The notes beneath the pieces were generated by a model, which was not told where the DNA came from, did not search any database, and saw only the letters and a program-made list of their open reading frames with translations. From assembly GCF_040079455.1 (NCBI RefSeq), contig NZ_JBEBKJ010000002.1:47544-71543 (forward strand): a DNA stretch of 24,000 nucleotides. Reading direction: 5' to 3'. The position numbers and the translations under genes are program-made. Below, one piece after another: positions 4,639 to 21,079 of this stretch. The stretch is from Methyloglobulus sp. (GTDB lineage: Bacteria; Pseudomonadota; Gammaproteobacteria; Methylococcales; Methylomonadaceae). The number at the start of each line of letters is the position of its first letter. The stretch's first letter is position 1.

Positions 4639-6727
4639 TGTTTATTCGCTTGAAAGTCAGCGGATTAGAGTGCTTTGGTCAAATATGCAAATCGTATTTT
4701 GGATCGATATTGACGATGACAAAGCACTGCCTAAATTAGCTCCAAAAAGTGAGTTAGAACACTTGATGGCAAAAGGTTCTCTGAAAGCGATTGATGATCC
4801 GCATATATCTCTGGCCCTTAATTCGCCTCCACCAGGATCATTGGCCGAGCAAGTCCAAGCTAAAGCTTGGAATGCGATCAAAGAGATTGTGATCCGAGAG
4901 CCAGAAATATACTACCGTAAAACAAGAGGCCCTTTGTTTAATAAGGTACTCGAAGCTAGTGGGGCTACAAAGCAAACTCTTTATCGTTGGTTGCGCCGGT
5001 ACTGGCAATTTGGGCTTTGTAGGAATGCGTTGCGCGGTCGTTTTGAAAACTGTGGGGGTGCTGGGAAAACCAAAGGTGCGGGTGATAAAAAAAGAGGCGC
5101 ACCAAGAACTCGTTCGCCTGGCACAGGCATTAATGTCGATGAACAAATTCGATTGATATTTAGGGTGGCGATTGAAAAATGTTTGCTGCATGAGGGTAAG
5201 TACGAATTTGATTATGCTTACAATCAGGTGCTAATAGCCTATGGTGTGCCAAAACCCTGCAAGCCGGAAGATATTCTTGAAGTGCCCACCGAGCGCCAGT
5301 TCCGATATTTTTATGAGAAGGAATATTCGCCTATTGAAGTCACTCGAAAACGAGAGGGGGAAATAAACTACCTGAAAGATTTTCGCCCAGTTTTGGGCAC
5401 TTCTACCGCCGAAGTAGCAGGGCCAGGAAGTCGATACCAGATTGATGCTACGATTGCTGATGTCTATTTAGTTTCTGAAAGAGATCGCGAAGAAATTGTC
5501 GGTCGGCCAACGGTTTACTTTGTCGTTGATGTTTTTAGCCGTGCAATTGTTGGATTATATGTCGGCCTTGAAAACCCATCTTGGGTCAGTGCGATGGAAG
5601 CATTGATTAATGCTGCCTGCGATAAGGTGGCGTATTGTAAAAGTTTTGGGATAGACATTACAGACGACTTGTGGCCTACAGTAGGTTTGTCAGAGGCGTT
5701 AATAGGTGATCGTGGTGAAATGTTAGGCCGCCATGTTGAAGTCATGAGCAAGGCGTTCAACATCAACATTGAAAATACACCGCCCTATAGAGCCGATTGG
5801 AAAGGAATAGTTGAGCGGTTCTTTCGGACTTCGCAAACGAAGATGAAACCATTTGTAGAAGGCTATGTAACGAAGAACCCTATAGGTAAAAAGCGGCATG
5901 GAAAAGACTATCGTCAGGATGGTATTCATACCCTGAAAGAGTTTATCCAAATGATCATTCGCATAGTCCTCTTTTATAACAATGAGCACATTGTTTCGAC
6001 TTATGACCCTGACCAGGATGTGCCGCCAACTTTACCGCACCATCCCTTAACCCTTTGGAATTGGGGAATTGAATATCGAACTGGGCGATTACGACGACCA
6101 GCGGAAGACTTAGTTCGCGTTAATCTTTTTCCGCATTCAAAAGCCACTATCACTGAGCACGGTCTACGGCTCTTTGGTTGTTATTTCAGCTGTAAAGCAG
6201 CAATTGAATTTGGGTGGTTCGAAGGAAATTACAAAGGATCGAAAATCGTCATTGTTGCTTACGATTTTTACTCTATTAACAAAATTTACATCCGGTCTAA
6301 CGATTCATTCTCCGAGTACATCGAAGCCGAATTGACCGAACGTAGTCGGGAATATCGAGATTTAACAATTTGGGAGGTTTGGAATCGAAATGATGTTAAA
6401 GCGGAGACAGCTGCTGTATCCAAACTTACGAAACGAGCCGGATCAGTAAATTTGGTCACTGAACTCGAAGCAATAGCTAAGCAATCAAGGGACAATCAGC
6501 CAGCTGTGAAGAAGAAAACCAAGCTAGAGAGGGTAAGAGGGATAAAGGACAATAAAAAAGCTGAACGCCAATATGAGCGTACTAAAAAAGCAATTAACGG
6601 TGAAGCGGCAAAAACTGCCTTACATGATAACGTGATTCCCATTCGGGAGGAAGAATCTCGTCGAGTGAGTTTTAAACTACCAACAAGGTTGAAAGACTTG
6701 CTAAAGGAGGACTCTCAGGATGAATAA
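4616..6727 (+). CDS. tnsB: Tn7 transposition protein TnsB (DDE transposase)
   Basis: 703 aa. DDE/RNase-H-fold signatures are present: YQIDATIADV, IGDRGEM and YRADWKGIVERFF. There is an N-terminal HTH-like segment (TLYRWLRRYW). The start may be any of the ATGs at 4616, 4622 or 4631. Confidence 0.9.
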   Translation: MNMFMPNDVYSLESQRIRVLWSNMQIVFWIDIDDDKALPKLAPKSELEHLMAKGSLKAIDDPHISLALNSPPPGSLAEQVQAKAWNAIKEIVIREPEIYYRKTRGPLFNKVLEASGATKQTLYRWLRRYWQFGLCRNALRGRFENCGGAGKTKGAGDKKRGAPRTRSPGTGINVDEQIRLIFRVAIEKCLLHEGKYEFDYAYNQVLIAYGVPKPCKPEDILEVPTERQFRYFYEKEYSPIEVTRKREGEINYLKDFRPVLGTSTAEVAGPGSRYQIDATIADVYLVSERDREEIVGRPTVYFVVDVFSRAIVGLYVGLENPSWVSAMEALINAACDKVAYCKSFGIDITDDLWPTVGLSEALIGDRGEMLGRHVEVMSKAFNINIENTPPYRADWKGIVERFFRTSQTKMKPFVEGYVTKNPIGKKRHGKDYRQDGIHTLKEFIQMIIRIVLFYNNEHIVSTYDPDQDVPPTLPHHPLTLWNWGIEYRTGRLRRPAEDLVRVNLFPHSKATITEHGLRLFGCYFSCKAAIEFGWFEGNYKGSKIVIVAYDFYSINKIYIRSNDSFSEYIEAELTERSREYRDLTIWEVWNRNDVKAETAAVSKLTKRAGSVNLVTELEAIAKQSRDNQPAVKKKTKLERVRGIKDNKKAERQYERTKKAINGEAAKTALHDNVIPIREEESRRVSFKLPTRLKDLLKEDSQDE

Positions 6728-8366
6728 TGAAACTCAGACTAGATTTCCGGAAGCGAACTATATCGATCCTGGATTACCTGAATATGCTGAAAATCCATGT
6801 ATCGCAGCTTTACCACCAATTATGGATGAGTATAGTGTCGTGAAGCTACTGACTCAACGGCCCAGTATCAGCGAAGTAGAAAAATATTTACCGGGCCACA
6901 TTCGAGTACATGTAATTAGTCGGCTAACCAAGAATTTCTTTCAACCGCTCACAACGCATCTTCATCTGGAGCGAAAACTCTCATTACTGATTCGACAGGG
7001 TTATCTGGGTAGAAACCCAAAATATCCCGACTTTAAAAAACATCTCAATAACTGCTATCAAAAGATCATAAAGCAGGATTTGGAAGTATACGTTCATGAC
7101 GATGTAGATTCAACTGCGTCTTCAATGTCTGTTGTAGGTATTTCTGGTACGGGTAAATCGACGACTTTTAACATAATTTTAAAAACCTATCCGAAAGTAA
7201 TTTATCACCCTGATTATAATTTGATCCAAATACCCTGGATAAAAGTGGATTGTCCGCACGATGGGACGCTGACTGAGTTTTGCTATAGATTTTTTATGGC
7301 TTTAGATCGTCGGCTTAATACAAATTACCGACAAAAGATTGGTTCCGGACGTCCTAGCATTGGTAAGTTGATTGCCGAACTTGCCAACCTATGCCTTATT
7401 CATGCAGTAGGTTTGTTGGTGATTGATGAGTTTCAACATATGAACCTTGCTAAAAGTGGCGGCGAAAAAAAGATGATCAACTTTTTGGTTACCTTGGTAA
7501 ATACCATAGGGGTGTCAGTGATATTGGTCGGCACACCAAAGGCTTTGCCTATTTTTGCCGGTGAATTTCGTCAAGCAAGAAGGGCATCGGGCGAAGGCAG
7601 TATCGTTTGGAACCGAATGCCGTATGATGAAAGTTGGGATGATTTTATCGATGAAATGTGGTCATTTCAGTGGTTGAGAAATATGCAGCCACTAAATGAA
7701 GCGATTAGAAATAAGCTCTATGAACTATCACAGGGTATTGCCGATATAGTCGTAAAGTTGTTCTGTTTGGCGCAAGCACGCTCAATTTTGCTTGCTCAGT
7801 CCGCGGACGATGAATTCATTTCCGTTGAGCTTTTGGAAGACGTATTCGAGGAGGAGTTTTCAACCGTGGGTCCAATGTTGGAGGCTTTGAGAGAAAATAA
7901 TGAACGAAAGCTCCGAGAGTGCGCTGACCTAGTTTTGCCTGATATCGAAGGAAAACTGCTAAATACCTTCGACCACTTAAAAAAGCAAACGGTAACAAAA
8001 CCCATAATTGTCGAAACTGGGGATGCGGAAGAGTCTGGTTTTGCGACAAGTGCATTAAAAGCATTAACCGCAATGGGCATTAATCAAGATATTGCCTTGC
8101 CATTGATTGCCGAATCAATCCAAAACAATCCAAATTTAACGCTCATTCAAGTGGTGCATGCAGTTACCAGTTTAATGACAATCACAGAACAAGAGCAAAA
8201 ACCAAAAAATAATCGACCAAAAATGGCATTGGTAAAATCTTCTAATTGGGGGCAGCTAAATGGAGATGACCTGCGAAAAGTACAATTCGTTAAAACAGCA
8301 ACTATGTATGAATCATTAGTGGAGTCTGGCTTCATCTATCCCGTGGAAAATTTATTAGCAGGCTAG
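6720..8366 (+). CDS. tnsC: Tn7 transposition protein TnsC (AAA+ ATPase regulator)
   Basis: 548 aa with Walker A GISGTGKST and Walker B LLVIDEFQH. The start overlaps the tnsB stop (6720 versus 6727), suggesting translational coupling. Confidence 0.9.
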   Translation: MNNETQTRFPEANYIDPGLPEYAENPCIAALPPIMDEYSVVKLLTQRPSISEVEKYLPGHIRVHVISRLTKNFFQPLTTHLHLERKLSLLIRQGYLGRNPKYPDFKKHLNNCYQKIIKQDLEVYVHDDVDSTASSMSVVGISGTGKSTTFNIILKTYPKVIYHPDYNLIQIPWIKVDCPHDGTLTEFCYRFFMALDRRLNTNYRQKIGSGRPSIGKLIAELANLCLIHAVGLLVIDEFQHMNLAKSGGEKKMINFLVTLVNTIGVSVILVGTPKALPIFAGEFRQARRASGEGSIVWNRMPYDESWDDFIDEMWSFQWLRNMQPLNEAIRNKLYELSQGIADIVVKLFCLAQARSILLAQSADDEFISVELLEDVFEEEFSTVGPMLEALRENNERKLRECADLVLPDIEGKLLNTFDHLKKQTVTKPIIVETGDAEESGFATSALKALTAMGINQDIALPLIAESIQNNPNLTLIQVVHAVTSLMTITEQEQKPKNNRPKMALVKSSNWGQLNGDDLRKVQFVKTATMYESLVESGFIYPVENLLAG

Positions 8367-8368
8367 TT

Positions 8369-9901
8369 ATGCTTGCTTACTTTCCACAACCTTACCCAGA
8401 TGAGCTTCTTTATAGCGTAGTTGCCCGATATGCTGTGCACACAGGGCAAGATAACCAAAAAGCAGTAATTAGGGATATTTTTGGTTCAAACTCTGCCGCG
8501 GCAGTACCCGATATGCCGAGCCACATTGACCGCCTCATATCAGCAACTAAAGCTATATGGCGAACTAGCCCAGAACACATAATTAGTCAAAACACGCTTG
8601 CACCGTTTTACCTCCCGTTTCTGGCACCCGAGAAAGCAGATTCCGTGGTTAACTCAATGCGATCTGCGCAAGGTGGTGATATTCATACCAGGGCTGGCAT
8701 TGCAGCTTCAACTATCAAGCGCCCCATTTACTTTCGTTATTGCCCAAAGTGTGTTGAAGAACAAATAAAGGTTTACGGCGAGCCCTATTGGAAGAGACAA
8801 AACCAAGTAACAGGCTTGGGGTTTTGTTCAGCGCACATGACTAAATTGATCAACTCAGACGTTGAATTTCACCCGAAATCTAAGCATTTGTTTGTTCCTG
8901 CGGCATTGGTCAATTTAACACAGGTAGTCGAATGTTTAGTGGGTTCTTCAAAGGAGCTGCAATTGAACAAGCACGTTGAAATTTTGTTAAACAATCCAAT
9001 TAATATCCGGCTGACTCATTGGCAATGGACATTATTTTATCGCAATTTGGCAAAGCATCATGGGTTATTGAATGGCATAAGGGCTGATCATTCAGCAATT
9101 AACTTACTGATTAAGGATTGTTGGCATTCGTCTCCTGTTTTTGCGCTGATTCCATTTGAACAGCCGGAAAATTTATGGCTTGCGAATATCTTTAGAAAGC
9201 ATAGAAAATCGTTTTATCCCATTAGACACGCTATGGTTTGGGTGGCTTTAGCTCCTGATTTATCAACCACCGAAATATTATCCCAGGTGGCTAATTATCC
9301 AGTCCAACCAGAACGGAGAAAACAATTTACTTCATTACCTGCTTCAGATCAGGAGGTTTCAATAAAACGAGTTTTATGGCGTAATCTTACCATTAAGAAT
9401 CCTGACTGCGGTGTAAAGCGACTTCGTATCCTGGAAAGCGGAAGTGCTCTGTATACATGGTTGTATCGTCACGATTACAATTGGTTAATACAAAATAAGC
9501 CAAGAAAATCCGTTAACCCGCCAAAGAATAAAACTGATTACGAAAAACTAGATTCAGATGTTCTAAATGAACTTGTTACCATAAAGTCAGGTTTCCATAC
9601 ATTGAATGACCGTCCTAGACTGTCACGAACATTCTTGCTCCGTCAATTGGCAAGATATAGCAGTATTGAAAAATATTTGAAAAGGCTTCCGATAACGCGA
9701 GAGTGGCTCGAAAAAGAATCAGAGTCAATCGAAGATTTTCAGATTTATCGCCTGAGCAAAGTTGCATTGGAAATGCGAAAGTCAGGAATAGAATTGCAGG
9801 CGTGGAAACTCATACGGGCTGCTGGATTAAAACCGCAAAAAATACCTCCCCGAATTTATTCAATCATTGATAGTTTAGTGTCTGAAAAGAAGCTTAGATG
9901 A
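8369..9901 (+). CDS. tnsD: TnsD / TniQ-family target-site selector
   Basis: 510 aa; Tn7 TnsD is about 508 aa. It has a TniQ-type N-terminus (FPQPYPDELLYSVVARY) and a zinc-finger-like CPKC...CSAH motif. It sits after tnsC, and the element lies at a glmS attTn7 site. Confidence 0.85.
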   Translation: MLAYFPQPYPDELLYSVVARYAVHTGQDNQKAVIRDIFGSNSAAAVPDMPSHIDRLISATKAIWRTSPEHIISQNTLAPFYLPFLAPEKADSVVNSMRSAQGGDIHTRAGIAASTIKRPIYFRYCPKCVEEQIKVYGEPYWKRQNQVTGLGFCSAHMTKLINSDVEFHPKSKHLFVPAALVNLTQVVECLVGSSKELQLNKHVEILLNNPINIRLTHWQWTLFYRNLAKHHGLLNGIRADHSAINLLIKDCWHSSPVFALIPFEQPENLWLANIFRKHRKSFYPIRHAMVWVALAPDLSTTEILSQVANYPVQPERRKQFTSLPASDQEVSIKRVLWRNLTIKNPDCGVKRLRILESGSALYTWLYRHDYNWLIQNKPRKSVNPPKNKTDYEKLDSDVLNELVTIKSGFHTLNDRPRLSRTFLLRQLARYSSIEKYLKRLPITREWLEKESESIEDFQIYRLSKVALEMRKSGIELQAWKLIRAAGLKPQKIPPRIYSIIDSLVSEKKLR

Positions 9902-11481
9902 GTCAAATTACTTTCACAAATATACCCAAGGGATCAAAACTAATTCTTATGGGAGATTTTTTTCGAACACCAGGTGAAGATTGGCGTGTGACATGTTATT
10001 TTTTAGCCAACCGAAACAAGCCTTTTCGAAAAGCAATGCCAGTTGACCTGCTACCTGCCCTCAGTGTTGGTTCAATTTATCCCAGAGCTACCGATGTGAA
10101 TGCGGCTCATGGTTATAGAGGTAGGTTTGTGATCCCTAATGGTTATCAATGGGATCAATTGCAATATCACGATCTACCAAAAAGCTTGCAGCGGCTGAAT
10201 GAATATGAAGGACAATTGAAAAACCAAAATATATATCGCATAAGTGTTGCTGATAAGGTTTTTTGGTTACCTACTTTAGAACTCGCCCGTCGATTGCATT
10301 TTCACTCAGCTGAGCTAGTGCGTACCGCGTTTCTTCAAGCAAACACTTTATCGTTAGCACGAGCAACGCTTGAAAGCTGGGTGGGACGGGTTGATTTTAC
10401 ATCAAATATTCCACTGTCTTATATGAATAGTCAGGAATACCGCAAGTATTTCGCTTGGTTGTTATTTGACCAAGAAGCTCAAAATAGTTTTTGTTCCATT
10501 TTTAAACATTTAAATAGAGAAAGTCGCTTTGACAATCAGGTTGAGAGGTGGAGCTTTAACTTTTCTCCGCCTGCGATGGCCGGTTGTGAAATTTCATGGG
10601 TAGGTTATACAGGCACTGACAGTGAGCAAAATCACTATTACATTCGTGAAATTCTTGCAATTGCTGCATTACCTTCGCCTCCAGTCAACAGGGTATGGTT
10701 TAGTCATCCTGACGATGTATTAGTCTTAAATGAAGAGGGGGTTGGGAACAACAAAGAAAAATCTGGTAAAAAGGTTGTTCAACCAAAACAAATCGATCCA
10801 GTACAAGCTTCCATAGCAAGTCAAAAACGATATTTATTAGAAATTAATCGTGCCGGGTTGCATTTTGATACAGATATTGAGCTAAAACGCAGTTCAAGGC
10901 GGGTACAGATTTATCCAAAAGACGAAGAAACAGCGTTGGATTCAATGGATGTTGAAGAAACTGTGGGAATTACGGAAGGCAAAATCGCAGGAACTCTACC
11001 GCGTGCCGATATTGATTTGCTTAAAGAAAGAGAACTCATCGAAGCACCAGAAAAAATGAAGTTTTTTAGCCGAATGCTTGAAGGGCTGAAGGAATTCAAC
11101 GAATGGGATTATCAGGTTAAATTAGGAACAGTGCCACAATGTAACTGTCGAACAGCTCACCTAATCGACGGACGAAAGCGCCAATATAGCCATGTAATGC
11201 TTCAGCGAGATTCTGATACTATGGTACACATCCTTGAAATCGAACTAAAACAGGATGAAAGCCTATCAACGTTACTCTTTCGCTCCAACGCGGTAGAAGA
11301 TTCCCTAGAGTTGATTCTTGATGGGTTGATGCGAAATTCAATCAAATGGGATAGAGGAATTATTGCTGAGCAAACTACTGCCCGGCATTACTTAGACCAT
11401 CCAGACAGAAAAATAAAAAGTGAAGATGATGCACTGACATCCTGGGTTGCGCGAGCTAGCCAGAAAATTGTTACCCTCTAG
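9898..11481 (+). CDS. tnsE: TnsE-like target selector (replication/conjugation-directed pathway)
   Basis: 527 aa with an ATGA overlap with tnsD. Several blocks match my recollection of Tn7 TnsE (538 aa). LPTLELARRLHF matches IPQLELARSLFL. AWLLFDQEAQNSFCSIFKH...VERWSFNFSPPAMAG matches VWLFSDQDVMDSYESIFRH...VESWCFSFDPPPMQG. The C-terminal HILEIELKQDESLSTLLF matches VLLEVDASDGVKMLSTKVL. Confidence 0.75.
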   Translation: MSQITFTNIPKGSKLILMGDFFRTPGEDWRVTCYFLANRNKPFRKAMPVDLLPALSVGSIYPRATDVNAAHGYRGRFVIPNGYQWDQLQYHDLPKSLQRLNEYEGQLKNQNIYRISVADKVFWLPTLELARRLHFHSAELVRTAFLQANTLSLARATLESWVGRVDFTSNIPLSYMNSQEYRKYFAWLLFDQEAQNSFCSIFKHLNRESRFDNQVERWSFNFSPPAMAGCEISWVGYTGTDSEQNHYYIREILAIAALPSPPVNRVWFSHPDDVLVLNEEGVGNNKEKSGKKVVQPKQIDPVQASIASQKRYLLEINRAGLHFDTDIELKRSSRRVQIYPKDEETALDSMDVEETVGITEGKIAGTLPRADIDLLKERELIEAPEKMKFFSRMLEGLKEFNEWDYQVKLGTVPQCNCRTAHLIDGRKRQYSHVMLQRDSDTMVHILEIELKQDESLSTLLFRSNAVEDSLELILDGLMRNSIKWDRGIIAEQTTARHYLDHPDRKIKSEDDALTSWVARASQKIVTL

Positions 11482-11671: not shown

Positions 11672-12388
11672 TTAAATCCACCGCAATAATACCGCCTTAA
11701 CCACCGCCGCTGTTTTATTGTGAGTGCCTGTTTTTTGCAGCACATTATTGATATGAAAATTTACCGTTCGTTCGGTAATTCCCATTTGCGTAGCAATTTC
11801 ATGTGCAGATTTACCTTCCGCAGACCAACGCAGCACCTCAACCTCGCGTTGGGTTAAGGGATTTTCGCTAGCGATAGCAAAATCCTGGGCAGCTAACTTA
11901 TATAACCCCTGATGGGCTAATTGGGTAAGCCAAGAAAAGAGCATTTGCTTATCCGCCAATTCATTCGCCTGCAAAGCCTCACCTGATCGGGCTAACGTTA
12001 ACATACCCAAAAATCCGTCAGCATTGCAGTAAGATTGCGACCAGCCGTGATCTATGCCAAATTCTTTGGCATCTTCCCAAAAATCGGGGGCAGACCCAAG
12101 TAAGCTGCTAGACCAGATTAAGGGGAAGGTTGAGCGACTGCCATGCTGAACGACAGGGTCAACGGCAAAATAGTTATTTTTTACATAACGGATTTGCCAG
12201 TCTGATGAATAGTTGGATAACCAAATGGTTTTTGGGTTCATCACCGGATAGGGCGCACGTAAACCAAACGCGCAATAATCGAAACCCAAAACGCTAGCTG
12301 TTGTGGCTAAATGCTCGAAGAAATCCTTCTGGTTGTCGGCGAACAAAAGTAGTTCCAGGTGTTCTTCCAACCATTTCTGTATATTCAT
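11672..12388 (-). CDS. LuxR-family transcriptional regulator with an N-terminal autoinducer (AHL)-binding domain; no luxI in the window (LuxR solo)
   Basis: 238 aa. The N-terminal domain has conserved AHL-pocket-type residues (WLSNYSSDWQIRYVKNNYFAVDPVV, PLIWS, GFLGMLTLAR). The C-terminus has the GerE/LuxR HTH (LTQREVEVLRWSAEGKSAHEIATQMGITERTVNFHINNVLQK). Confidence 0.88.
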   Translation of the reverse strand: MNIQKWLEEHLELLLFADNQKDFFEHLATTASVLGFDYCAFGLRAPYPVMNPKTIWLSNYSSDWQIRYVKNNYFAVDPVVQHGSRSTFPLIWSSSLLGSAPDFWEDAKEFGIDHGWSQSYCNADGFLGMLTLARSGEALQANELADKQMLFSWLTQLAHQGLYKLAAQDFAIASENPLTQREVEVLRWSAEGKSAHEIATQMGITERTVNFHINNVLQKTGTHNKTAAVVKAVLLRWI

Positions 12389-12508
12389 ATTAAAAGACCT
12401 ATGCCTTAAACAAACAAGCTAATCAAGAATTAGGGTGCTACAAAAACATAACGTTTAACTGCGGAATAATTCGGGCACAAAATAAATTATACAGAGTTGC
12501 AAACGGAT

Positions 12509-12528
12509 ACCTGTCAAAATTGACAGCT
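12509..12528. promoter_or_regulatory. lux-box-like 20-bp palindrome in the luxR / cargo-array intergenic region
   Basis: ACCTGTCAAAATTGACAGCT has 7-bp perfect inverted arms (CTGTCAA/TTGACAG) and fits the CTG-N10-CAG lux/las-box pattern. It is flanked by a perfect 10-bp inverted repeat carrying extended -10-like TGTATAAT boxes that face outward. One (12484-12493, minus strand) points toward luxR. The other (12566-12575, plus strand) points toward the cargo genes. Confidence 0.5.
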
Positions 12529-12579
12529 ATGCAAATGCTATAAATTAAGATTTAATGCCTTTAAATGTATAATTTGAAG

Positions 12580-12692
12580 CATTACGTTCAAGTGGGACGC
12601 GCCTTATTTGGTGGATTTGAAGGGTTGTTATTTTTCGGCTTCGGTGGCTTCGCCAATCTTCCGTAACAAGCGCGCCCTTCTTTACGTTAGCT
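12580..12692 (+). repeat. attC-like imperfect palindrome, copy 1 (~105 bp)
   Basis: The 5' arm is CATTAC-GTTCAAGTGGGACGCGCC and the 3' arm is GCGCGCCCTTCTTTAC-GTTAGCT. The arms pair imperfectly with unpaired bases on the 5' arm. It is about 80% identical by eye to copy 2. It ends in GTTAGCT, close to the integron core GTTRRRY. No recognisable R'' box lies upstream. Confidence 0.5.
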
Positions 12693-12702
12693 ATTACAAA
12701 GG

Positions 12703-13257
12703 ATGCATGGGTTGAACCGGCAATTACAAGCTGAACTGCTATCAATGCAAGAAGAAGATCAACGCATCCTGCAAGAGTTGATTGACAGTGGAGAGCTCGG
12801 CACTGTTGAGTATCACCCAAGAATTAAGGCAATCCACGAAAAGAACAATGTACGCATCAAAGAAATCATAAGTCGCCACGGATGGCCTGGAATAAGTTCC
12901 GTTGGCAAGGAAGGTTCGGAAGCCGCGTGGCTGATTGTTCAGCACGCGGTATTAGATACAAAATTTATGAATGAATGTTTAACTTTGTTACAGGAAGCCG
13001 TCCATCAAGGCGAAGCAGAAGGATGGTGCTTCGCCTATTTGCAAGATAGAGTGCTTACTATGTCTGGTAAGCCGCAAATATATGGAACTCAACACGACAC
13101 TGACGAAAATGGTATTGCCTTTCCTTTGCCTATGAAAGAGCCAGGAAAAGTTGATTTGCTGCGCCAAGAAGTGGGGCTTGAGCCTCTATCCGAAGCCACT
13201 AAACGCATTCAGGAAAGACAAAATGCAACTAAGAGTAATCGTGAAACCAATGGCTAA
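12703..13257 (+). CDS. Hypothetical protein (cassette-like ORF bracketed by the two long attC-like repeats)
   Basis: 184-aa ORF with a weak RBS (AAAGG) upstream. Its stop codon TAA lies inside GGCTAAC, the R''-like box of repeat copy 2. I recognise no catalytic motif. Confidence 0.7.
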   Translation: MHGLNRQLQAELLSMQEEDQRILQELIDSGELGTVEYHPRIKAIHEKNNVRIKEIISRHGWPGISSVGKEGSEAAWLIVQHAVLDTKFMNECLTLLQEAVHQGEAEGWCFAYLQDRVLTMSGKPQIYGTQHDTDENGIAFPLPMKEPGKVDLLRQEVGLEPLSEATKRIQERQNATKSNRETNG

Positions 13258-13368
13258 CATTACGCTCAAGCGGGACGCGCCTTTTCGTGGCGGTTTTGAA
13301 GGCTTGTGTTTTTCCGGCTTCGGCGGCTTCGCCAACCTTCCGTGACAGGCGCGCCCCTTAGCTTAGTC
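13252..13368 (+). repeat. attC-like imperfect palindrome, copy 2 (~115 bp)
   Basis: The 5' side reads GGCTAAC (R''-like, contains the upstream stop codon), ATTAC, then GCTCAAGCGGGACGCGCC. The 3' side reads GGCGCGCCCCTTAGC then TTAGTC. Positions 13264-13281 pair with 13348-13362. This leaves C13267, C13271 and A13275 unpaired. The inner part (GAAGGCTTG / CAACCTTC) also pairs. Confidence 0.55.
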
Positions 13369-13397
13369 ACCATAATTTTAACCACTCGGGTAAACAC

Positions 13398-14168
13398 ATG
13401 AGCCATATACATTTCAATAAGATGGTCGCTTCAATTTTCTTGATAGCGATCTTTATTCTTCCGCGACAGGCACAAACATCGGAACTTCCCTACAAGGCGG
13501 TAGCTTTCGATTATTTCGTCATCTTTGACCCCAACTCAGTCGTTGGCGAAGTTGAAAAAGTTTTTCCTGGCAAAGGCATGGATTTCACCAAAGCGTGGCG
13601 TGCCAAACAATTTGAATATGGCTTCCTGCGCTCCATCACAAAAAATCACGAGGACTTTTTTAAAGTTACAGAAGATGCCTTGCTTTACACCATTGAGAAT
13701 ATGAAACTTGAAGCGACCCAAGCCCAGAAAAAGCAACTTCTTATTGCCTATCTATCGCTAAAGCCCTGGCCTGATTCAATTGAAGGCTTGAAAAAGCTGA
13801 AAGCTGCTGGCATAAAAATCATCACTATCTCCAATTTTAGCAAGATGATGCTTAAGTCCAATGCAGATAGTGCTGGAATTGCCGATCTTTTTGATGAGCT
13901 AATAAGTACTGAAATCAACGGCACATACAAACCAGACCCAGAGGCGTACGCATTAGGACTACAACACCTTGGGTTGAAGAAAGAGGATGTTGTCTTCGCG
14001 GCTTTTGGCGGTTGGGATGCCTACGGTGCAAAAAGTTTTGGCTACCCGACTTATTGGGTCAATCGCTTCAACTTACCAACGGAAAAATTAGGTATTCAGG
14101 CAGACGGGACAGCCAATAATTTTCAAGGCTTAGTGGACTTTGTTTTGGGCGAAAAAACACATCATTAA
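13398..14168 (+). CDS. HAD-superfamily hydrolase, type II haloacid dehalogenase-like, with N-terminal signal-like segment
   Basis: 256 aa. The nucleophile motif AFDYFVIFD resembles FDAYGTLFD of L-2-haloacid dehalogenases. GTYKPD and the C-terminal FGGWDAYGA motifs are also present. The hydrophobic N-terminus MVASIFLIAIFILPRQAQT looks like a signal peptide. Confidence 0.8.
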   Translation: MSHIHFNKMVASIFLIAIFILPRQAQTSELPYKAVAFDYFVIFDPNSVVGEVEKVFPGKGMDFTKAWRAKQFEYGFLRSITKNHEDFFKVTEDALLYTIENMKLEATQAQKKQLLIAYLSLKPWPDSIEGLKKLKAAGIKIITISNFSKMMLKSNADSAGIADLFDELISTEINGTYKPDPEAYALGLQHLGLKKEDVVFAAFGGWDAYGAKSFGYPTYWVNRFNLPTEKLGIQADGTANNFQGLVDFVLGEKTHH

Positions 14169-14233
14169 ACAATGGCGCAATAACTTTTAGCATCCGCAGT
14201 ACAGCAGAGATATACATGTTATGTTGATGCCGC

Positions 14234-14270
14234 CCAAGCGGGACGGTTGCTATCACGGCCGTCCCCTTGG
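14234..14270 (+). repeat. Short attC-like hairpin, copy 3 (same family as copies 1 and 2)
   Basis: CCAAGCGGGACGG (14234-14246) pairs with CCGTCCCCTTGG (14259-14270), with C14239 bulged and a 12-nt loop. It shares the AAGCGGGACG / CCCCTT core with copies 1 and 2. A canonical GTTAGAC lies 25 bp downstream (14295-14301). There is no T-run, so it is not a typical terminator. Confidence 0.45.
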
Positions 14271-14320
14271 TTCTAAATTAGGATTATTGTTAACGTTAGA
14301 CAACACTAGGAGAACATCAG

Positions 14321-14824
14321 ATGACTGAACGAATCAACTACTGGAAGCTAATTGGCCCAGAGGCCACGCTGTTGACCCAGATCGAAGACCAACTCAACCA
14401 CGGGCCGTTGGATTTACGCCTCCTGGAAATGGTTCGGCTGCGTGCGTCACAGATCAATGGTTGCGGTTTCTGCGTGCGATACCATTCGCAGCGCCTGCGA
14501 ATGCTGGGTGAAACGGAAGAGCGCATTGACCTTATCATCGCTTGGCGTGAAGCCCCCTGTTACAGCGAACGAGAACAAGCCGTGCTGCAATGGGCGGAAA
14601 CGATCACGCAGCTGTCGGATCACCGACATGTTCCTGATGCGCTGTATGAGCAAACTCGCCAATTTCTGAATGAGGAAGAATTGGCCTCGTTAACGCTCGC
14701 TGTGGCAATGGCGAACGTCTGGAATCGCATCGCCGTAGCTTTTCGCACGGATCATTCATCCATTGAGACCTTACTGAAAGCAGCCGACAATATGGTGCAA
14801 TATTCAGAGCAAAAAATGGGTTAG
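14321..14824 (+). CDS. Carboxymuconolactone decarboxylase / AhpD-like family protein
   Basis: 167 aa with the CGFCVRYH motif (CxxCxxxH) typical of the AhpD-like core. A good AGGAG RBS lies upstream. Confidence 0.8.
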   Translation: MTERINYWKLIGPEATLLTQIEDQLNHGPLDLRLLEMVRLRASQINGCGFCVRYHSQRLRMLGETEERIDLIIAWREAPCYSEREQAVLQWAETITQLSDHRHVPDALYEQTRQFLNEEELASLTLAVAMANVWNRIAVAFRTDHSSIETLLKAADNMVQYSEQKMG

Positions 14825-14882
14825 ACGTAAAAATCCAACGGTTTTTGTACATTGATGGGCATTAATTGCAATAGGAAGTCAC

Positions 14883-15557
14883 ATGAGTAAACTAAGACAT
14901 TTGGTACTGCTAGCACTATTTAATGCCGTTTTTGTTGTTAATTCTGCCAACGCAGCATCCCATAAAATTGGAATTTTAGTGTTTGATGGCTTTTTGACGA
15001 GTGATGTCACCGCACCTATCGAAGTATTTGGTGCAGCAACAAAGAAGGCGTGGTTCTCCTCTTACGAGGTCGTCGTCATTTCTGCAACAACAAATAAGGA
15101 GGTTCGTTCAGAAGAAGGGCTGAAAATAATCGCTGATAAAACCATTTACGATGATCTCAAGCTTGATGTGTTGTTAGTTCCGAGCGCTTACGAAATGGAT
15201 GGTTTTTTGAAAAACAAGGAACTTATCCAGTTTATTAAAAAACAAAATCAATCGGCATCCTGGATGGCAAGCAACTGCTCCGGTGCATTTTTACTCGGCG
15301 AGGCTGGCGTTCTTGATGGGAAAAATGCAACGACTTGGGCGGGGGGAGAAAAAGGCCTCTCAAAAGCCTACCCCAATATAAAAGTTCAGTCTGACCAAAA
15401 TGTGGTTATTGACAATAAGGTTATCACCTCAAATGGCGGCCCCGTTAGTTATCAAGCGGCATTCATATTGTTGGCAAAGCTAAGTTCCGAAAAATTCTCA
15501 CAAGAAATTACAGATGCAATACAGTTTAATAGGCTCAAAAGTGCATTCAAGCCATAG
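14883..15557 (+). CDS. DJ-1/PfpI family protein with Sec-type signal peptide
   Basis: 224 aa. The nucleophile-elbow Cys context is ASNCSGAFLLGEAGVLDG. The N-terminus LVLLALFNAVFVVNSANA/AS looks like a cleavable signal peptide. Confidence 0.8.
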   Translation: MSKLRHLVLLALFNAVFVVNSANAASHKIGILVFDGFLTSDVTAPIEVFGAATKKAWFSSYEVVVISATTNKEVRSEEGLKIIADKTIYDDLKLDVLLVPSAYEMDGFLKNKELIQFIKKQNQSASWMASNCSGAFLLGEAGVLDGKNATTWAGGEKGLSKAYPNIKVQSDQNVVIDNKVITSNGGPVSYQAAFILLAKLSSEKFSQEITDAIQFNRLKSAFKP

Positions 15558-15580
15558 TCATCCATCCAGAGGTATTTTCA

Positions 15581-15874
15581 TTGTTTGTCGTAATATTCCG
15601 GGCAAAAGTACGTAGTGTTGACAGCGAGTATTCGGCGGTTGCTGCGAGGCTGCGTGAATTGGCATTAGGCCAGTTTGGCTGCCTCGACTTTCAGGCCGTC
15701 ACCGAGGGGGAAAATGAAATAGCGCTTTCCTATTGGCCAAACGAAGAAAGCATTCTGGCTTGGAAGTCACATTCGGAGCATGTCTTGGCGCAACAACTGG
15801 GCAGGGAGCGCTGGTATGAGTCTTATACTGTGCAAGTGGCAGAGATTACCCGTGAGTACCGTGTGCCTCTCTAA
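15581..15874 (+). CDS. Antibiotic-biosynthesis-monooxygenase (ABM) / dimeric alpha-beta-barrel domain protein
   Basis: 97 aa with a TTG start and an AGAGG RBS about 8 nt upstream. The pattern FVVIFRAKV...LSYWPNEESILAWKSHSEH is typical of small ABM-domain proteins. Confidence 0.65.
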   Translation: MFVVIFRAKVRSVDSEYSAVAARLRELALGQFGCLDFQAVTEGENEIALSYWPNEESILAWKSHSEHVLAQQLGRERWYESYTVQVAEITREYRVPL

Positions 15875-15925
15875 CATGGCATCCAATGGAACACCGTCAT
15901 TTGGCACGCTTAAGGTATTCTAAAA

Positions 15926-16981
15926 ATGATACTGAGTAGTCTCCTGGTACGAGCCCTATTGGTTTTCTTTGGGATATGTGGTCTGGCTGCGATAGTGGGC
16001 AGCGTTTATCAAATGCAGGCAAGCGCCGCCGATTTAAAAGCGCATCCTGTACCGGGACGTATGGTTAACGTCAATGGGCTGAACTATCACCTGAACTGCA
16101 CAGGCACAGGCACAGGTTCGCCAACGAGTATTTTGGAAGCCGGTTTGGGGGAAAGTGCCTTGAGCTGGTATCCGGTTCAAGCTAAACTCGCCCAAACAAC
16201 ACAAGTTTGCGCATACGATCGCGCCGGACTTGGATGGAGTGACCCGGCGGACGGCCCGATGTCGCTAGAGCAAGTTGCAACAAACTTGCATACGCTGCTT
16301 CGCAATGCATCGATTATGTCACCCTTTGTGTTGGTTTGCCATTCACGCGGCGGAATATTTTGCCGCCAGTTTTATCGCCAGTTCCCCAGTGAAGTGAAAG
16401 GCTTGGTTCTTGTTGATTCCACGCACGAACAAGGCGCTTTTCGGGAGTATCCTTATGCGCAAGCAGACTATTTTAAACAAAGAATCCAGATTGCCATTGC
16501 GCCTTTGCTGTCCCGTATTGGGGTTATTCGCTTGATGGGTTGGGCAAACGCTGACCGACAGCCATCACCTTTGCCTGCCGATATTTTGGCAGCGAAAACA
16601 GCCGTTCAAAACCGTACCGATACAACCCTCGCCGTCGTCAACGAAATAGCCGTGATGCGGAAAAGCTTGGATGCAGCGACCCCGCCGCCATCTTCGCTGG
16701 GCAAGCTGCCGCTGGTTGTATTGACTGCAGGCAAAGGAATAGATATTGGGTTGGCTGAACGTGAAGCCATAGCATCGAATAGTTCGGTAGAAAATGCCGT
16801 GGCAGTTGCACGTATTGAAAGCACGTCGCAGGAAGAATTGGCGGCCCTTTCATCAAACAGCAAGCATGTTATAGCGGATAGAAGTGGGCATTTCATTATG
16901 TATGACCAGCCTGACCTGTTGGTAAGCAATGTATTGGAACTATTGAATTCTGTTCGTTGTCTGTCCCCGCGTGATTGTTGA
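15926..16981 (+). CDS. Alpha/beta hydrolase with N-terminal membrane anchor or signal
   Basis: 351 aa. The N-terminus is hydrophobic (LLVRALLVFFGICGLAAIVG). The nucleophile-elbow-like motif is VCHSRGG, and DSTHE and a late H (GHFIMYDQP) follow. Confidence 0.75.
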   Translation: MILSSLLVRALLVFFGICGLAAIVGSVYQMQASAADLKAHPVPGRMVNVNGLNYHLNCTGTGTGSPTSILEAGLGESALSWYPVQAKLAQTTQVCAYDRAGLGWSDPADGPMSLEQVATNLHTLLRNASIMSPFVLVCHSRGGIFCRQFYRQFPSEVKGLVLVDSTHEQGAFREYPYAQADYFKQRIQIAIAPLLSRIGVIRLMGWANADRQPSPLPADILAAKTAVQNRTDTTLAVVNEIAVMRKSLDAATPPPSSLGKLPLVVLTAGKGIDIGLAEREAIASNSSVENAVAVARIESTSQEELAALSSNSKHVIADRSGHFIMYDQPDLLVSNVLELLNSVRCLSPRDC

Positions 16982-16983
16982 AG

Positions 16984-17817
16984 ATGATGACGCCCATTAA
17001 GCCAGTGAAATATAGCCAGTTCGGTGCCGATAAGGGGCAGATAGTGATCTACTTCCACGGTGCGCCTGGAGCGCCGGAAGAATGTGCCATTTTTGATTCT
17101 TATGCAAAAGATAAGGGTTTGACGATTATTTGTTTAGAGCGGTTTTCTATTGATTGCTCAATAAGTGGAGAAGCGTATTATCAGTTCCTGGCCAGGGAGA
17201 TTTCAACATTGGCCGACGGTAAATCGGTAGATTTTATTGGTTTCTCCATCGGTGCGTTCATCGCCTTTCAGACTAGCCGTTATATGGCTGATGGTGTCAG
17301 GAACATGCATTTGATTTCTGCGGCTGCGCCGTTGGAAGCGGGAGATTTTATAAACGCGATGGCAGGTAAACAGGTTTTTAAACTAGCCAAGGCATTTCCA
17401 GGATTGTTCGTTTTGTTGTCATACTGGCAAAGCTTGCTGGCTCTATTTTCCGCCAAGACACTATTTAATTTGTTGTTTGCCAGTGCCGCTGTTGCTGACA
17501 AAGCATTGGTCAACGACCGTGAGTTCCAAGCCAGTATCACCAACGTATTGCGGTCGTGTTTTATTGGCCACATCCAAGGCTATGTGCGTGACATAAAAGC
17601 GTATGTACAACCTTGGGAAACCACACTTTCTGACATTTCCGTCAATACGCACATCTGGCATGGGGCGGAGGATAACTGGTCGCCAACGCCGATGGCTGGC
17701 TACTTGAAATCAGCGATTCCGGGTTGCTCACATATCGAAATAATGGAAGGTTTGTCGCATTACTCATGTCTGTATGAAGCCGTGCCAAAAATATGCAGGC
17801 AATTGGGCAAGGCTTAA
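16984..17817 (+). CDS. Alpha/beta hydrolase
   Basis: About 277 aa. It has an HGAPG oxyanion-type motif, a GFSIGA (GxSxG) nucleophile elbow and a late GLSHY histidine. The start is uncertain: TTG at 16975 or 16978, or ATG at 16984 or 16987. It abuts or overlaps the upstream stop at 16979-16981. Confidence 0.75.
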   Translation: MMTPIKPVKYSQFGADKGQIVIYFHGAPGAPEECAIFDSYAKDKGLTIICLERFSIDCSISGEAYYQFLAREISTLADGKSVDFIGFSIGAFIAFQTSRYMADGVRNMHLISAAAPLEAGDFINAMAGKQVFKLAKAFPGLFVLLSYWQSLLALFSAKTLFNLLFASAAVADKALVNDREFQASITNVLRSCFIGHIQGYVRDIKAYVQPWETTLSDISVNTHIWHGAEDNWSPTPMAGYLKSAIPGCSHIEIMEGLSHYSCLYEAVPKICRQLGKA

Positions 17818-17873
17818 AATACAATCAATGCTCTTACCTTTTCGGTAGCATTTCAAGGAAATCGAGAACGAAC

Positions 17874-18476
17874 ATGTACAAACTTTATGACTTTTTACCT
17901 TCAGGAAATTGCTACAAAATTCGCCTTTTGCTTAATCAATTAGGCATTGACTATGAGCGGGTCAATGTTGATATTTTAAATAAAGAATCGCGTACGCCGG
18001 AGTTCCTAAAAATTAACCCTAATGGCCGCACGCCTGTTCTGTATCATGACGGGAAGTATCTTGCTGAGTCCAATGCGATTTTAGGGTATCTGGCTTCAGA
18101 TACCCACTTTTTACCTAAAGGCAAATACGAGCAAGCCCTGGTTTTGCAGTGGATGTTCTTTGAGCAATATAGTCATGAGCCTAATATCGCAACCCCACGA
18201 TATTGGGTGTCAATACTGAAGGCCGAAGAAGAATACAGGGAACAGCTGACAGCAAAAATGAAGCTCGGCTATGCTGCATTGGATGTCATGGAACAGCATT
18301 TGGCAATCAACACTTATTTTGTGGCTAACCAGTACAGTGTTGCGGATATTGCCTTGTATGCTTATACCCATGTTGCAGAAGAAGGCAAGTTTGATTTGTC
18401 AGGATACAGTAGTATACAGGCATGGTTTAAACGGGTTGAGAGCCAAGAAAACCATATTGACATTAAAAAAAGTTAA
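17874..18476 (+). CDS. Glutathione S-transferase family protein
   Basis: About 200 aa counted from the internal ATG at 17874. The longer listed ORF from 17793 overlaps the previous gene. It has a thioredoxin-like N-domain (YKLYDFLPSGNCYKIRLLLNQLGIDYE...GRTPVL) and a helical C-domain. Confidence 0.8.
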   Translation: MYKLYDFLPSGNCYKIRLLLNQLGIDYERVNVDILNKESRTPEFLKINPNGRTPVLYHDGKYLAESNAILGYLASDTHFLPKGKYEQALVLQWMFFEQYSHEPNIATPRYWVSILKAEEEYREQLTAKMKLGYAALDVMEQHLAINTYFVANQYSVADIALYAYTHVAEEGKFDLSGYSSIQAWFKRVESQENHIDIKKS

Positions 18477-18534
18477 CAAAACACTCAACCGAACGTGGTT
18501 ACAATGCAGTTTTATTTTTTAGAGGGATACTTAC

Positions 18535-18948
18535 ATGCTTTCACTATTTGAAAAACCAAATGCTCTATTAAGATTAGAAGGCTTAGGCATTTTTCTTCTG
18601 GCACTTACCGTCTATTGGCAGCAGTCGTTTGACTGGACGCTATTTTGGTCAACCGTTTTGCTACCGGATTTAGCGCTTCTTGGGTACCTTGTTAATGCCC
18701 GGGTTGGCGCAGTCACTTACAATATCACCCACTCAAAATTGTTGCCTTGCGCTCTGGCTTTGGTCTCGGTCGCAGAAGGTGACACCTTAGCCTTGGCATT
18801 GTCACTTATTTGGTTCATTCACATTGGTGTTGATCGGCTGTACGGTTACGGCCTGAAATACCCAGAAGGATTCAAAATTACCCATCTTGGTGTTATTGGG
18901 CAAGTAAGCAACGTAACCTTTGGCCGTTACTTACCTTGTGGAAAATAA
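18535..18948 (+). CDS. Small integral membrane protein (DUF4260-like)
   Basis: 137 aa with several hydrophobic helices. The motifs LLPDLALLGYL, YNITHS and HIGVDRLYGYGLKY...THLG match my recollection of the DUF4260 family. Confidence 0.6.
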   Translation: MLSLFEKPNALLRLEGLGIFLLALTVYWQQSFDWTLFWSTVLLPDLALLGYLVNARVGAVTYNITHSKLLPCALALVSVAEGDTLALALSLIWFIHIGVDRLYGYGLKYPEGFKITHLGVIGQVSNVTFGRYLPCGK

Positions 18949-19042
18949 ATGAAGTTTAACCAGTGCACGGGCTATACGGTTCTATTTTTCAGCTTTCTAT
19001 GCCCGGTTAGCTTTATCTTAGCCATCATAGAAGAGAGAAGCC

Positions 19043-19351
19043 ATGCTTGAACTCAGGCCAGCCTGTGAGCATTGCAACAAGCCGTTGCCGCCCGATTCAC
19101 TTGAAGCACGTATCTGTAGCTATGAATGTACGTTCTGTGCCGCCTGTGTCGACACTATCCTGGGTAACGTTTGCCCGAACTGCGCTGGTGGCTTTGTACC
19201 TAGGCCCATCAGGCCGTCCAAGAACTGGAAAAGCGATAACTATCTTGGCAAAGACCCGGCGAGTACCCAGATCAAGCACAGACCCGTTGACCAGGAAGAT
19301 CATGCGCGGTTTACGGCTGAAATTAGGTTAATACCACCCGAAAAGCGGTAA
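19043..19351 (+). CDS. Cys-rich DUF1272-like protein
   Basis: 102 aa. The pattern MLELRPACEHCNKPLPPDS...CSYECTFCAACV...CPNCAGGFVPRP is typical of DUF1272 zinc-ribbon-like proteins (from memory). Confidence 0.7.
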   Translation: MLELRPACEHCNKPLPPDSLEARICSYECTFCAACVDTILGNVCPNCAGGFVPRPIRPSKNWKSDNYLGKDPASTQIKHRPVDQEDHARFTAEIRLIPPEKR

Positions 19352-19452
19352 CCCAAAAACTGGAAAGGGGATAATCCTGTAATTGAAGTTACAGCTTAGT
19401 CTGCCTGTCTCATCCACATTGAGTATCTCTCAGTAAAATTTATATAAGGAAA

Positions 19453-19827
19453 ATGGCAATGGAAAACAATTCACATCAAGCTATTTGGGAAACCTACACA
19501 CAATCGTGGTCTGAGGCAGACGTATCGAAGCGGCTGCAAATATTCGGGCAATGCTTGAATCCTGATTGCGTGTACACCGACCCGCTCATCCAGACGACAG
19601 GATACGACCAATTGTCCGGGTACATGGCGGAGCTTCACAAGAACGTGCCGGGCGTAAAATTTATAACCACTGATTTCAAAAGCCACCATGACCGCAGCCT
19701 TACTCATTGGAATATGGTTGATGGTAATGGCAACGTACTCTCCCAAGGCGCAAGCTATGGTTTGTACGGAACTGGTGGACGTTTACTGCAAATGACCGGA
19801 TTCTTTGAACTACCTAACGCGGACTGA
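19453..19827 (+). CDS. NTF2-like / SnoaL-like domain protein
   Basis: 124-aa ORF with an AAGGAAAA RBS region upstream. Its size and pattern (W..Y...W...D......F......Y.DP) fit small NTF2-fold proteins. Confidence 0.6.
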   Translation: MAMENNSHQAIWETYTQSWSEADVSKRLQIFGQCLNPDCVYTDPLIQTTGYDQLSGYMAELHKNVPGVKFITTDFKSHHDRSLTHWNMVDGNGNVLSQGASYGLYGTGGRLLQMTGFFELPNAD

Positions 19828-19832
19828 ACGCT

Positions 19833-20222
19833 TTGACGACTTCCAGCGCCGAATACGTAGACTATGTTTTAGAGCATTTGCAATCCATCGCACCGGTACA
19901 GACAAGTCGGTTCTTTGGCGGAGTGGGAATTTCCAACGGTTTCGTCCAGTTTGCCATGGTGATGGGAAATAGCTTGTATTTTGTGGTCGATGACGATTCG
20001 CGGAAGAAATACGAACTAGCTGGGATGCAGCCGTTTTCGTATCTGACCAAGAAAGGCCGTGTCCAAGTGAACCGGTATTTTGAAGTTCCCGAAGAGGTGC
20101 TTACCGATTCGGAACACCTGCGGCAATGGGCCAATGAATCCATGCAGGTGGCCGAGAAAACCAAGAAGCCTAAAAGGGTGCACCAAAGCCAGTCACCAGT
20201 TAACCCTGCATTAGGCCTTTAA
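19833..20222 (+). CDS. TfoX/Sxy N-terminal-domain-only protein
   Basis: 129 aa with a probable TTG start. The sequence RFFGGVGISNGFVQFAMVMGNSLYFVVDD...QPFSY...YFEVPEEVLTDSEHLRQW is characteristic of the TfoX_N domain. No C-terminal TfoX domain is present. Confidence 0.6.
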   Translation: MTTSSAEYVDYVLEHLQSIAPVQTSRFFGGVGISNGFVQFAMVMGNSLYFVVDDDSRKKYELAGMQPFSYLTKKGRVQVNRYFEVPEEVLTDSEHLRQWANESMQVAEKTKKPKRVHQSQSPVNPALGL

Positions 20223-21019: not shown

Positions 21020-21079
21020 GGTTAAAATAGCGATGGAATGAATTGAAAGTCTTTAACTTACTTGCTTTGGAGAACAACG

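Follow-up and report, generated by a model that had tools for sequence, protein, structure and literature searches.

Whether the small genes behind the transposition genes of a Tn7-like element are ordinary cargo or the remains of an integron cassette array is the question raised by a 24,000-nucleotide stretch of Methyloglobulus sp. (contig NZ_JBEBKJ010000002.1, positions 47,544 to 71,543 of the forward strand), hereafter the window, by which we mean the whole 24 kb analysed. Imperfect palindromes lie in the spacers of the first of these genes, 3' of tnsABCDE, and a reading made from the letters alone (the sequence-only reading) had taken them for integron attC sites in an array without integrase. 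Our analysis indicates that the palindromes (copies 1 to 3) are probably relic attC sites and that the intervening genes, encoding DUF6624, HAD-family and perhaps CMD-family proteins, are probably former cassettes that are frozen in place as Tn7-like cargo, with no integrase in the window. Our verdict is that the locus is a fossil, integrase-less cassette cluster, i.e., a decayed CALIN (cluster of attC sites lacking integron integrase, a class that Cury and co-workers are said to have defined with IntegronFinder in 2016).

Structure and damage of the palindromes

An integron integrase binds attC as a folded single (bottom) strand, in which R'' pairs with R' and L'' with L', leaving an unpaired spacer between the two boxes. 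Extrahelical bases mark the correct strand, and the cut is made at AA/C of the R box, which is G/TT on the top strand; this knowledge of attC folding and recombination is reportedly owed to Bouvier (2005) and MacDonald (2006). Intact relatives of copies 1 and 2 in other genomes have the whole architecture within ~123 nucleotides (nt): R'' GCCTAAC, spacer ATTAC, L'' GCTCAAGYGGGACGCGCC, ~60 nt of variable region, L' GGCGCGCCCCTTAGC, spacer TTTAC and R' GTTAGGC. In them, R'' and R' are complementary, each arm has a 5-nt spacer, and three single-base bulges interrupt the L box. Within the variable region of this ~123-nt family, the motifs GGCGGTTTTGAA and GGCTTCGCC are conserved.

Two lines of model evidence place copies 1 and 2 in this family. 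A sequence profile (nhmmer) of 29 long-type members from other genomes matched copy 2 with E = 2.5e-32 and copy 1 with E = 3.4e-23, and found no third family copy in the window. A covariance model of our own, R2, was rebuilt from 112 attCs in 41 loci, none of them from the window, that had been gathered with R1, a model made from 11 clean short sites. Under R2, copy 2 scored 43.2-43.4 bits (E = 6e-9), copy 1 18-20 bits (E = 0.007-0.017) and copy 3 14.3 bits (E = 0.18), while the best other match in the window stayed below 12 bits (E ~1 or higher). Set against the CALIN definition (at least two attCs within 4 kb of each other and no integron integrase nearby), R2 gives one site of clear significance and two borderline ones. 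Neither nhmmer nor R2 with filters off detected further decayed copies in 14.9-24 kb. R1, built from short-loop seeds, deals poorly with the 60-nt variable region, so that with filters off it broke each of copies 1 and 2 in two; R2 took its place.

This homology shows that copies 1 and 2 descend from the attC family found in Methylococcales integrons. As direct repeats of each other, the two copies are 72-86% identical over two gapless blocks (12580-12636 versus 13258-13314, and 12609-12677 versus 13288-13356). All three copies share the core YYCAAG-YGGGACG ... CCCYT, and the 11-mer core alone is within chance (three matches against 0.97 expected; at least three in 9 of 100 shuffles).

Copy 2 is the better preserved. 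Its R'' GGCTAAC (13252-13258), spacer ATTAC, L'' GCTCAAGCGGGACGCGCC, variable region and L' GGCGCGCCCCTTAGC are intact, and GCT-C-AAG-C-GGG-A-CGCGCC pairs with GGCGCG-CCC-CTT-AGC, leaving C13267, C13271 and A13275 bulged, so that the L box keeps its extrahelical bases (G and T on the bottom strand). The damage lies on the other arm, where six nucleotides (TTTACG, equivalently TACGTT) are deleted and the 3' spacer and the crossover G of R' have gone with them: the junction CTTAGC-TTTAC-G/TTAGTC has become CTTAGC/TTAGTC, and cTTAGTC stands at the R' position. Among 31 aligned sites, the gap occurs in copy 2 only, and the same six-column gap appears in the R2 alignment. A TT microhomology flanks the deleted stretch, and we interpret the gap as a small slippage deletion. 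When the bottom strands are folded, an intact relative (L080) forms the R box, the spacer and the L box with its three bulges; copy 2 forms no R box.

Copy 1 is damaged in different places. What remains of it is L'' (the 5' arm of the L repeat), a variable region of ~60 nt, both spacers, with TTTAC as the 3' one, and R' GTTAGCT (12687-12693). The R'' is lost: the family alignment has TTGAAGC where relatives have GCCTAAC, and homology starts only at 12580, the C of AAC. In addition, L' is short by 3-4 nt, reading CCCTTC where relatives have CCCCTTAGC. These lesions, like the gap of copy 2, are absent from all other sites in the 31-site alignment.

Overall, none of the three copies has a complementary R''/R' pair, which the intact relatives do have, and none shows R boxes with ~5-nt spacers on both arms; a pattern search for complementary RYYYAAC...GTTRRRY found none in the cargo and only chance pairs, within tnsB and tnsD. 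The positions of the sites agree with an array, with all three sites and the genes on the plus strand and copies 2 and 3 at the 3' ends of co-oriented open reading frames (ORFs). Most of what the sequence-only reading had described at this level is borne out: the three palindromes where it had placed them, the shared core, the fold of copy 2 down to its three unpaired bases, the missing R'' of copy 1, and the suspicion of decay, for which the lesions are now defined base by base. Its statement that copies 1 and 2 both lack a 3' spacer holds for copy 2 and fails for copy 1, in which TTTAC is intact and L' is the damaged part.

The proposed course of events is as follows. The cassettes would originate, as their relatives suggest, from the cassette pool of methanotroph (Methylococcales) chromosomal integrons, and would then have ended up in the cargo of the glmS-inserted tnsABCDE element of Methyloglobulus sp. 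Each site is damaged where an integrase acts (copy 1 in R'' and part of L', copy 2 in the 3' spacer and crossover G, and copy 3 in its R boxes). Such damage would abolish recombination, and excision or shuffling would no longer be possible. The cassettes are thus most likely frozen in place.

Relatives of the sites, their integrases and the cassette genes

The L'' core TCAAGYGGGACGCGCC, a 16-mer, was scanned over reference genomes and gave 119 loci (numbered L), about three quarters of which are chance matches in high-GC genomes; blastn sorted out the real ones. Full-length relatives occur in Methylococcaceae metagenome-assembled genomes (MAGs; L071, L075, L048 and L116), a Methylotenera MAG (L054), a Usitatibacteraceae contig (L058) and a Gammaproteobacteria MAG (L080), the last with two copies 714 nt apart. 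A metagenome scan with the variable-region pattern added 53 more loci. About 30 of the 119 loci (among L005-L102) carry short attCs of 60-65 nt with the same L''/L' core; those of L043 also match the long family in the 3' spacer and R', with a 6-nt loop in place of the variable region. The core was seen in short attCs of many lineages, among them Thiobacillus, Nitrotoga, Glaciimonas, Gallionellaceae, Sideroxydans, Rhodocyclales, Nitrosomonadaceae, Acidithiobacillus and a Francisella-labelled MAG, and this spread indicates an attC core that is widely common to Beta- and Gammaproteobacteria.

Long-type attCs elsewhere are not always complete. Truncated terminal ones, comparable to copy 1, were observed where arrays meet unrelated DNA, in L048 (3930-4021, ~86 nt, next to a modC-like ABC transporter gene) and L116 (3942-3995, ~48 nt). 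The single long-type attC in L071 (6861-6987) has an additional GCGC in its L'; a ParA-like gene flanks it on one side and housekeeping genes (ygfZ-like, COX15 and tgt) on the other, and it may mark the distal end of an array.

The family behaves as cassette sites do. Among the 112 sites, 75 begin no more than 40 nt from the end of a co-oriented ORF, and in 33 of these ORF-end sites the TAA inside R'' is the stop codon, as it is for the DUF6624 gene and copy 2. None of the 41 loci has sites on both strands. The sequence-only reading had proposed dispersal in both orientations as the sign of a repeat unrelated to integrons, and this sign is missing from these related sites, all of which lie outside the host genome.

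Integron integrases adjoin several of the arrays. They were sought by tblastn with an IntI1 query that served as a lead only, and each match cited here was confirmed by NCBIfam TIGR02249. Short-attC arrays in L043, L082 and L030 lie beside an IntI scoring 452-497 bits (cut-off 265). L144 is a complete integron, in which an IntI on the minus strand (323-1384, 442 bits; 80-85% identical to Methylomonas integron integrases) is accompanied by seven plus-strand attCs, the last of which (5574-5697) is a member of the long-type family. Likewise, the complete genome of Methylomonas sp. LL1 (CP064653.1) has intI next to an attC of 122 nt in which the variable-region motifs recur. Frameshifted or fragmentary intI genes were also observed by attC arrays in Thiobacillus denitrificans RG (L022, 6418-7397), a Rhodocyclales MAG (L034, 2056-3007) and a Gallionellaceae MAG (L019, 1550-1969). 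Together, the canonical boxes of the relatives, their co-oriented arrays at ORF ends and the neighbouring integrases (442-497 bits) uphold the attC interpretation of the sequence-only reading, as does the significant match of copy 2 to an attC covariance model, the check that it had proposed. Its observation that the window holds no integrase was also confirmed: the best match there, with the same IntI1 query, has E = 0.95. A complete integron, with intI, attI and the cassette promoter Pc next to the array, is not present in the window.

The cassette genes point the same way. The DUF6624 stop codon, TAA (13255-13257), falls within R'' of copy 2, and the six bases past the crossover point of copy 1, TTAGCT, joined to a G, form the heptamer GTTAGCT, complementary to that R'' at 6/7 positions. 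Both facts had been noted in the sequence-only reading, and the complementarity is expected if R'' and the TTRRRY half of R' both belong to the cassette itself. A metagenome contig (L122) has a DUF6624 gene and attC with 86% nucleotide identity to window 12634-13360. There, the gene lies between a long-type attC whose 3' end is intact, on its 5' side, and a complete attC (54 bits), on its 3' side; past this second attC, the sequence is unrelated to the window and a different gene takes the place of the HAD gene. As judged from these flanking sites, the comparison shows the DUF6624 gene to be a mobile cassette elsewhere. For the HAD gene, a homologue with 42% amino acid identity (4469-5176 in L132) lies between attCs at 4314-4400 and 5203-5324.

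Weighing the alternatives

Several points weigh against a fossil array of attC relics. Under the broader model R2, copy 3 falls short of significance, and it is possibly just a terminator-like hairpin. At 43 bits, copy 2 falls inside the range of real-array sites under R2 (32-76 bits), which speaks against the inactivity deduced from the sequences. An integrase gene may lie past base 24000 or at another place in the genome. The statistical support for structure, with 91% of cells paired and compensatory changes in 18 of 22 pairs against 28-49% paired in slid controls, comes from a 112-site alignment that was fitted to the model, which favours structure. Finally, the model seed was picked via a 16-mer present in copies 1 and 2, so that the L'' part of the score is partly circular; this circularity does not touch the nhmmer profile or the R and L' parts of the score.

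The alternative that survives best concerns copy 3 only. Its short hairpin, CCAAG-C-GGGACGG / CCGTCCC-CTTGG with one bulged C, begins 66 nt past the HAD stop codon and lies outside the long-type family by the nhmmer profile, so that the sequence-only reading, which had counted it as a related copy, does not hold on this point: it is a different hairpin with only marginal scores (14-19 bits, E from 0.003 to 0.18). It may be an intrinsic-terminator-like hairpin after the HAD gene, its L-box likeness coincidental, in which case only the DUF6624 gene would be bracketed by attC relics. The poor R2 score, a flag from a search for terminators (the stem has 10 bp, 7 of them G-C, and CTTGGTTCTA follows) and a core within chance argue for this. 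On the other side stand the R1 score of 19 bits (E = 0.003), both arms fitting the L''/L' consensus including the bulged C (CCAAG-C-GGGAC / GTCCC-CTTGG), a position where the attC of the HAD cassette is expected, a canonical GTTAGAC (14295-14301) 24 nt 3' of the stem, and a poor T tail. The R-like boxes nearer the stem are degenerate (TGTTGAT, and ATTAGGA at 14277-14283), and the bulged C is the only extrahelical base kept. Copy 3 may thus be the relic of a short-type attC; we regard the terminator as a serious competitor, towards which we do not quite lean.

The same GTTAGAC, a perfect R'-type core, recurs at 14820-14826 on the other side of the CMD gene, a possible third cassette, with the TAG stop codon inside it. 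At this second GTTAGAC, we found neither a model match nor a hairpin that would indicate an attC after the CMD gene, and the motif may have arisen by chance or be all that is left of a deleted attC. From 14883 to 24000, some 14 more small genes of unrelated function follow, nearly all on the plus strand, with no detectable attC between them; only in gene content does this run resemble a cassette array. A homologue of one of these genes, orf120 (22029-22391), with 38% identity, is a cassette in L148, where an attC follows it.

The region in front of copy 1 bears on how the cassettes are expressed. A divergent LuxR-type regulator gene, without similarity to IntI, occupies the position that intI has in a complete integron, and between it and copy 1 lie a lux-box-like palindrome and a promoter-like sequence. 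Cassettes are normally expressed from a promoter that lies in front of the array. From its motifs, 12507-12573 may be a candidate promoter for the cassette genes, perhaps controlled by quorum sensing, and transcription of these genes would come from upstream, perhaps from this region. A bolder account would go further and suppose that the integrase/attI end of a captured methanotroph integron was replaced by a luxR solo and a lux-box promoter, giving a fossil array that is locked at its R boxes, expressed by quorum sensing and fixed as Tn7-like cargo, in which the whole run of ~17 genes (12.7-24 kb) would be an eroded array with only the first two or three attCs recognisable. We consider this extension unlikely.

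It is also quite improbable that the cluster is an active CALIN, with sites that are still recombinogenic and an integrase that acts in trans from elsewhere in the Methyloglobulus genome or past base 24000. IntI is commonly encoded in Methylococcales, attC sites in general tolerate much sequence variation, and copy 2 still has R'', the spacer of the 5' arm, the L box in full and its three bulges, at a score within the range of real arrays. However, copy 2 has lost the G of G/TT together with the 3' spacer, so that on one arm alone its R box directly adjoins the L box, and its fold fails to form the R box; copy 1 lacks any R'' and copy 3 has no R boxes in register. Moreover, R2 gives 69-76 bits to close relatives that share 92-94% identity with copy 2 (somewhat inflated, as they are in the training set), whereas copy 2 itself reaches 43 bits and copy 1 18-20.

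Scarcely credible is a dispersed palindrome of the repetitive extragenic palindromic (REP) or miniature inverted-repeat transposable element (MITE) type, an RNA-stability or terminator element that merely resembles attC: the imperfect palindromes of copies 1 and 2 are long, ~115-120 nt, and lie between genes, copy 3 fits a simple terminator pattern, and a short-read Logan contig with identical sequence, apparently of the same strain (L175, SRR29156675_150389), ends inside copy 1 (window ~12656) as assemblies do at repeats, but elsewhere the family has canonical RYYYAAC/GTTRRRY boxes and lies co-oriented per locus, at ORF 3' ends and in arrays beside integron integrase genes, while the window has no Rfam match (whole window, E up to 1) and only two copies in 24 kb, both flanking one gene. 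The break of L175 in copy 1 fits a repeat that is present more than once in that genome.

The Tn7-like element and comparable systems

The relic cassettes, which we take to have been frozen by the damage to their sites, lie behind the tnsABCDE genes of a Tn7-like element inserted beside glmS (Table 1). The TnsE of the window is 100% identical to an NCBI protein named from Methyloglobulus sp. Looking for DNA past the window by way of identical proteins gave no match for three of four ORFs, a 2.3-kb Logan contig for glmS and a 7.9-kb one for TnsE. The 20-mers that resemble TnsB-binding sites occur three times against 0.17-0.32 expected, and no inverted copies were found anywhere in the window up to base 24000, which places the other (left) end of the element beyond the window and makes the DNA 3' of tnsE provisionally cargo. 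The Tn7-family setting of the sequence-only reading therefore stands insofar as the cluster follows tnsABCDE of a glmS-inserted element; its cargo status is provisional, since the left end is not reached before 24000, and we infer that the cassette cluster sits inside Tn7-like cargo.

Table 1. Features of the window, in order of position where one is given.
Feature	Position	Strand	Description or supporting match
glmU	424-1794		
glmS	1808-3637		
Probable transposon terminus TGT	~20-25 bp 3' of glmS stop codon		
Three tandem TnsB-binding-site-like 20-mers	3672-3730	+	ACAnnAAAGnnTCATnCTnA; glmS-proximal (right) end of element
tnsA, tnsB, tnsC, tnsD, tnsE	3781-11481	+	Pfam TnsA_N/C, Mu-transpos_C, AAA_22/TniB, TniQ/TnsD, TnsE_C
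LuxR-type regulator gene	11672-12388	-	autoinducer-binding (PF03472, E = 8e-35) and GerE (PF00196) domains
Lux-box-like palindrome	12507-12530	+	ATACCTGTCAA-AA-TTGACAGCTAT; 24 bp, CTG-N10-CAG
Promoter-like sequence	12545-12573	+	TTAAGA-17-TATAAT; just 5' of copy 1
Copy 1	12574-12693	+	long-type attC (relic)
DUF6624 gene (cassette 1)	12703-13257	+	184 amino acids; Pfam PF20329, E = 2.6e-30
Copy 2	13252-13368	+	long-type attC (relic)
HAD-family hydrolase gene (cassette 2)	13398-14168	+	256 amino acids; Pfam PF00702/PF13419
Copy 3	14222-14301	+	short hairpin at 14234-14270
CMD-family gene	14321-14824	+	167 amino acids; Pfam PF02627; possible third cassette
Gene run 3' of the LuxR-type gene		nearly all +	small genes: DUF6624, HAD, CMD, DJ-1/PfpI, ABM, two alpha/beta hydrolases, GST, DUF4260, DUF1272, SnoaL, TfoX_N, AraC-type regulator (minus strand), FMN reductase, several genes without matches

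Four related tnsABCDE elements (L174, L176, L177 and L178; TnsE 47-74% identical) carry different cargo right after tnsE, and no attC sites were found in these four; those of L176 and L177 are inserted beside glmS. With other cargo and no attC in its relatives, this lineage of the element must have acquired the cassettes. The cargo of L176 (Spartinivicinus ruber) is a nonribosomal peptide synthetase cluster, that of L177 consists of TIR/ThsB-type defence genes, and that of L178 holds phosphate-transport, arsenate-reductase-like and mer genes.

Among known systems, the closest in sequence are the sedentary chromosomal integrons of Methylococcales (Methylomonas sp. LL1 and L144), with which the window shares the ~123-nt attC family, its GGCGGTTTTGAA/GGCTTCGCC motifs, the L''/L' core, the stop codon inside R'' and cassettes of the same type (DUF6624 in L122, HAD in L132). 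Unlike the window, which has neither integrase nor attI, they have intI (442 bits in L144) and intact R boxes, and their arrays lie at a chromosomal integron platform, whereas the copies studied here lie in a transposon. The Vibrio cholerae repeats (VCRs) of the superintegron are presumably alike in form: homogeneous attCs of ~120 nt with an L box of the type YYT-C-AAG-N-GGG-A-C... / ...G-CCC-CTT-ARR and three bulges. They presumably differ in variable-region sequence, host lineage and integrase clade.

The class 2 integron of Tn7 has an integrase gene with a stop codon (intI2*), attI2 and intact attCs, and lies near the left end of the transposon. Like the cluster in the window, it (dfrA1-sat2-aadA1) is a cassette array carried as cargo of a tnsABCDE transposon downstream of glmS; in contrast, the window array begins ~1.1 kb after tnsE, behind the luxR-type gene, without intI or attI, and its attC family is unrelated to that of clinical cassettes. 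With CALINs and the partial integrons of Tn7-like cargo, the locus has in common co-oriented attC-type sites 3' of small promoterless genes, no intI nearby and a Tn7-like carrier. It departs from them in that only one site comfortably passes the attC model, in that lesions in the R box or spacer region of all three mark the cluster as decayed and no longer working, and in that its cassettes encode environmental enzymes (DUF6624, HAD, CMD) and not antibiotic resistance. The sequence-only reading had thought an integrase-less attC cluster in a Tn7 relative unusual, which is not so: in a survey with IntegronFinder, 10% of 6,549 Tn7-like transposons proved to carry an integron, whether intact or partial, and 2,334 cassettes were counted (Benler et al. 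2021, PMC8649781).

The locus is accordingly a further example of a known phenomenon and no new kind of element, and, with partial integrons already documented in Tn7-like cargo at that frequency, our understanding of integrons or of Tn7 is unchanged. It is distinguished by a methanotroph as host, by cassette genes of environmental type and by sites that have clearly decayed. It provides a base-by-base record of attC decay without an integrase, against which attC and CALIN detectors for environmental genomes can usefully be calibrated. For the methanotrophs, the finding means that cassettes of their chromosomal integrons can quit the integron platform, ride a glmS-targeting Tn7-like transposon and spread without an integrase.

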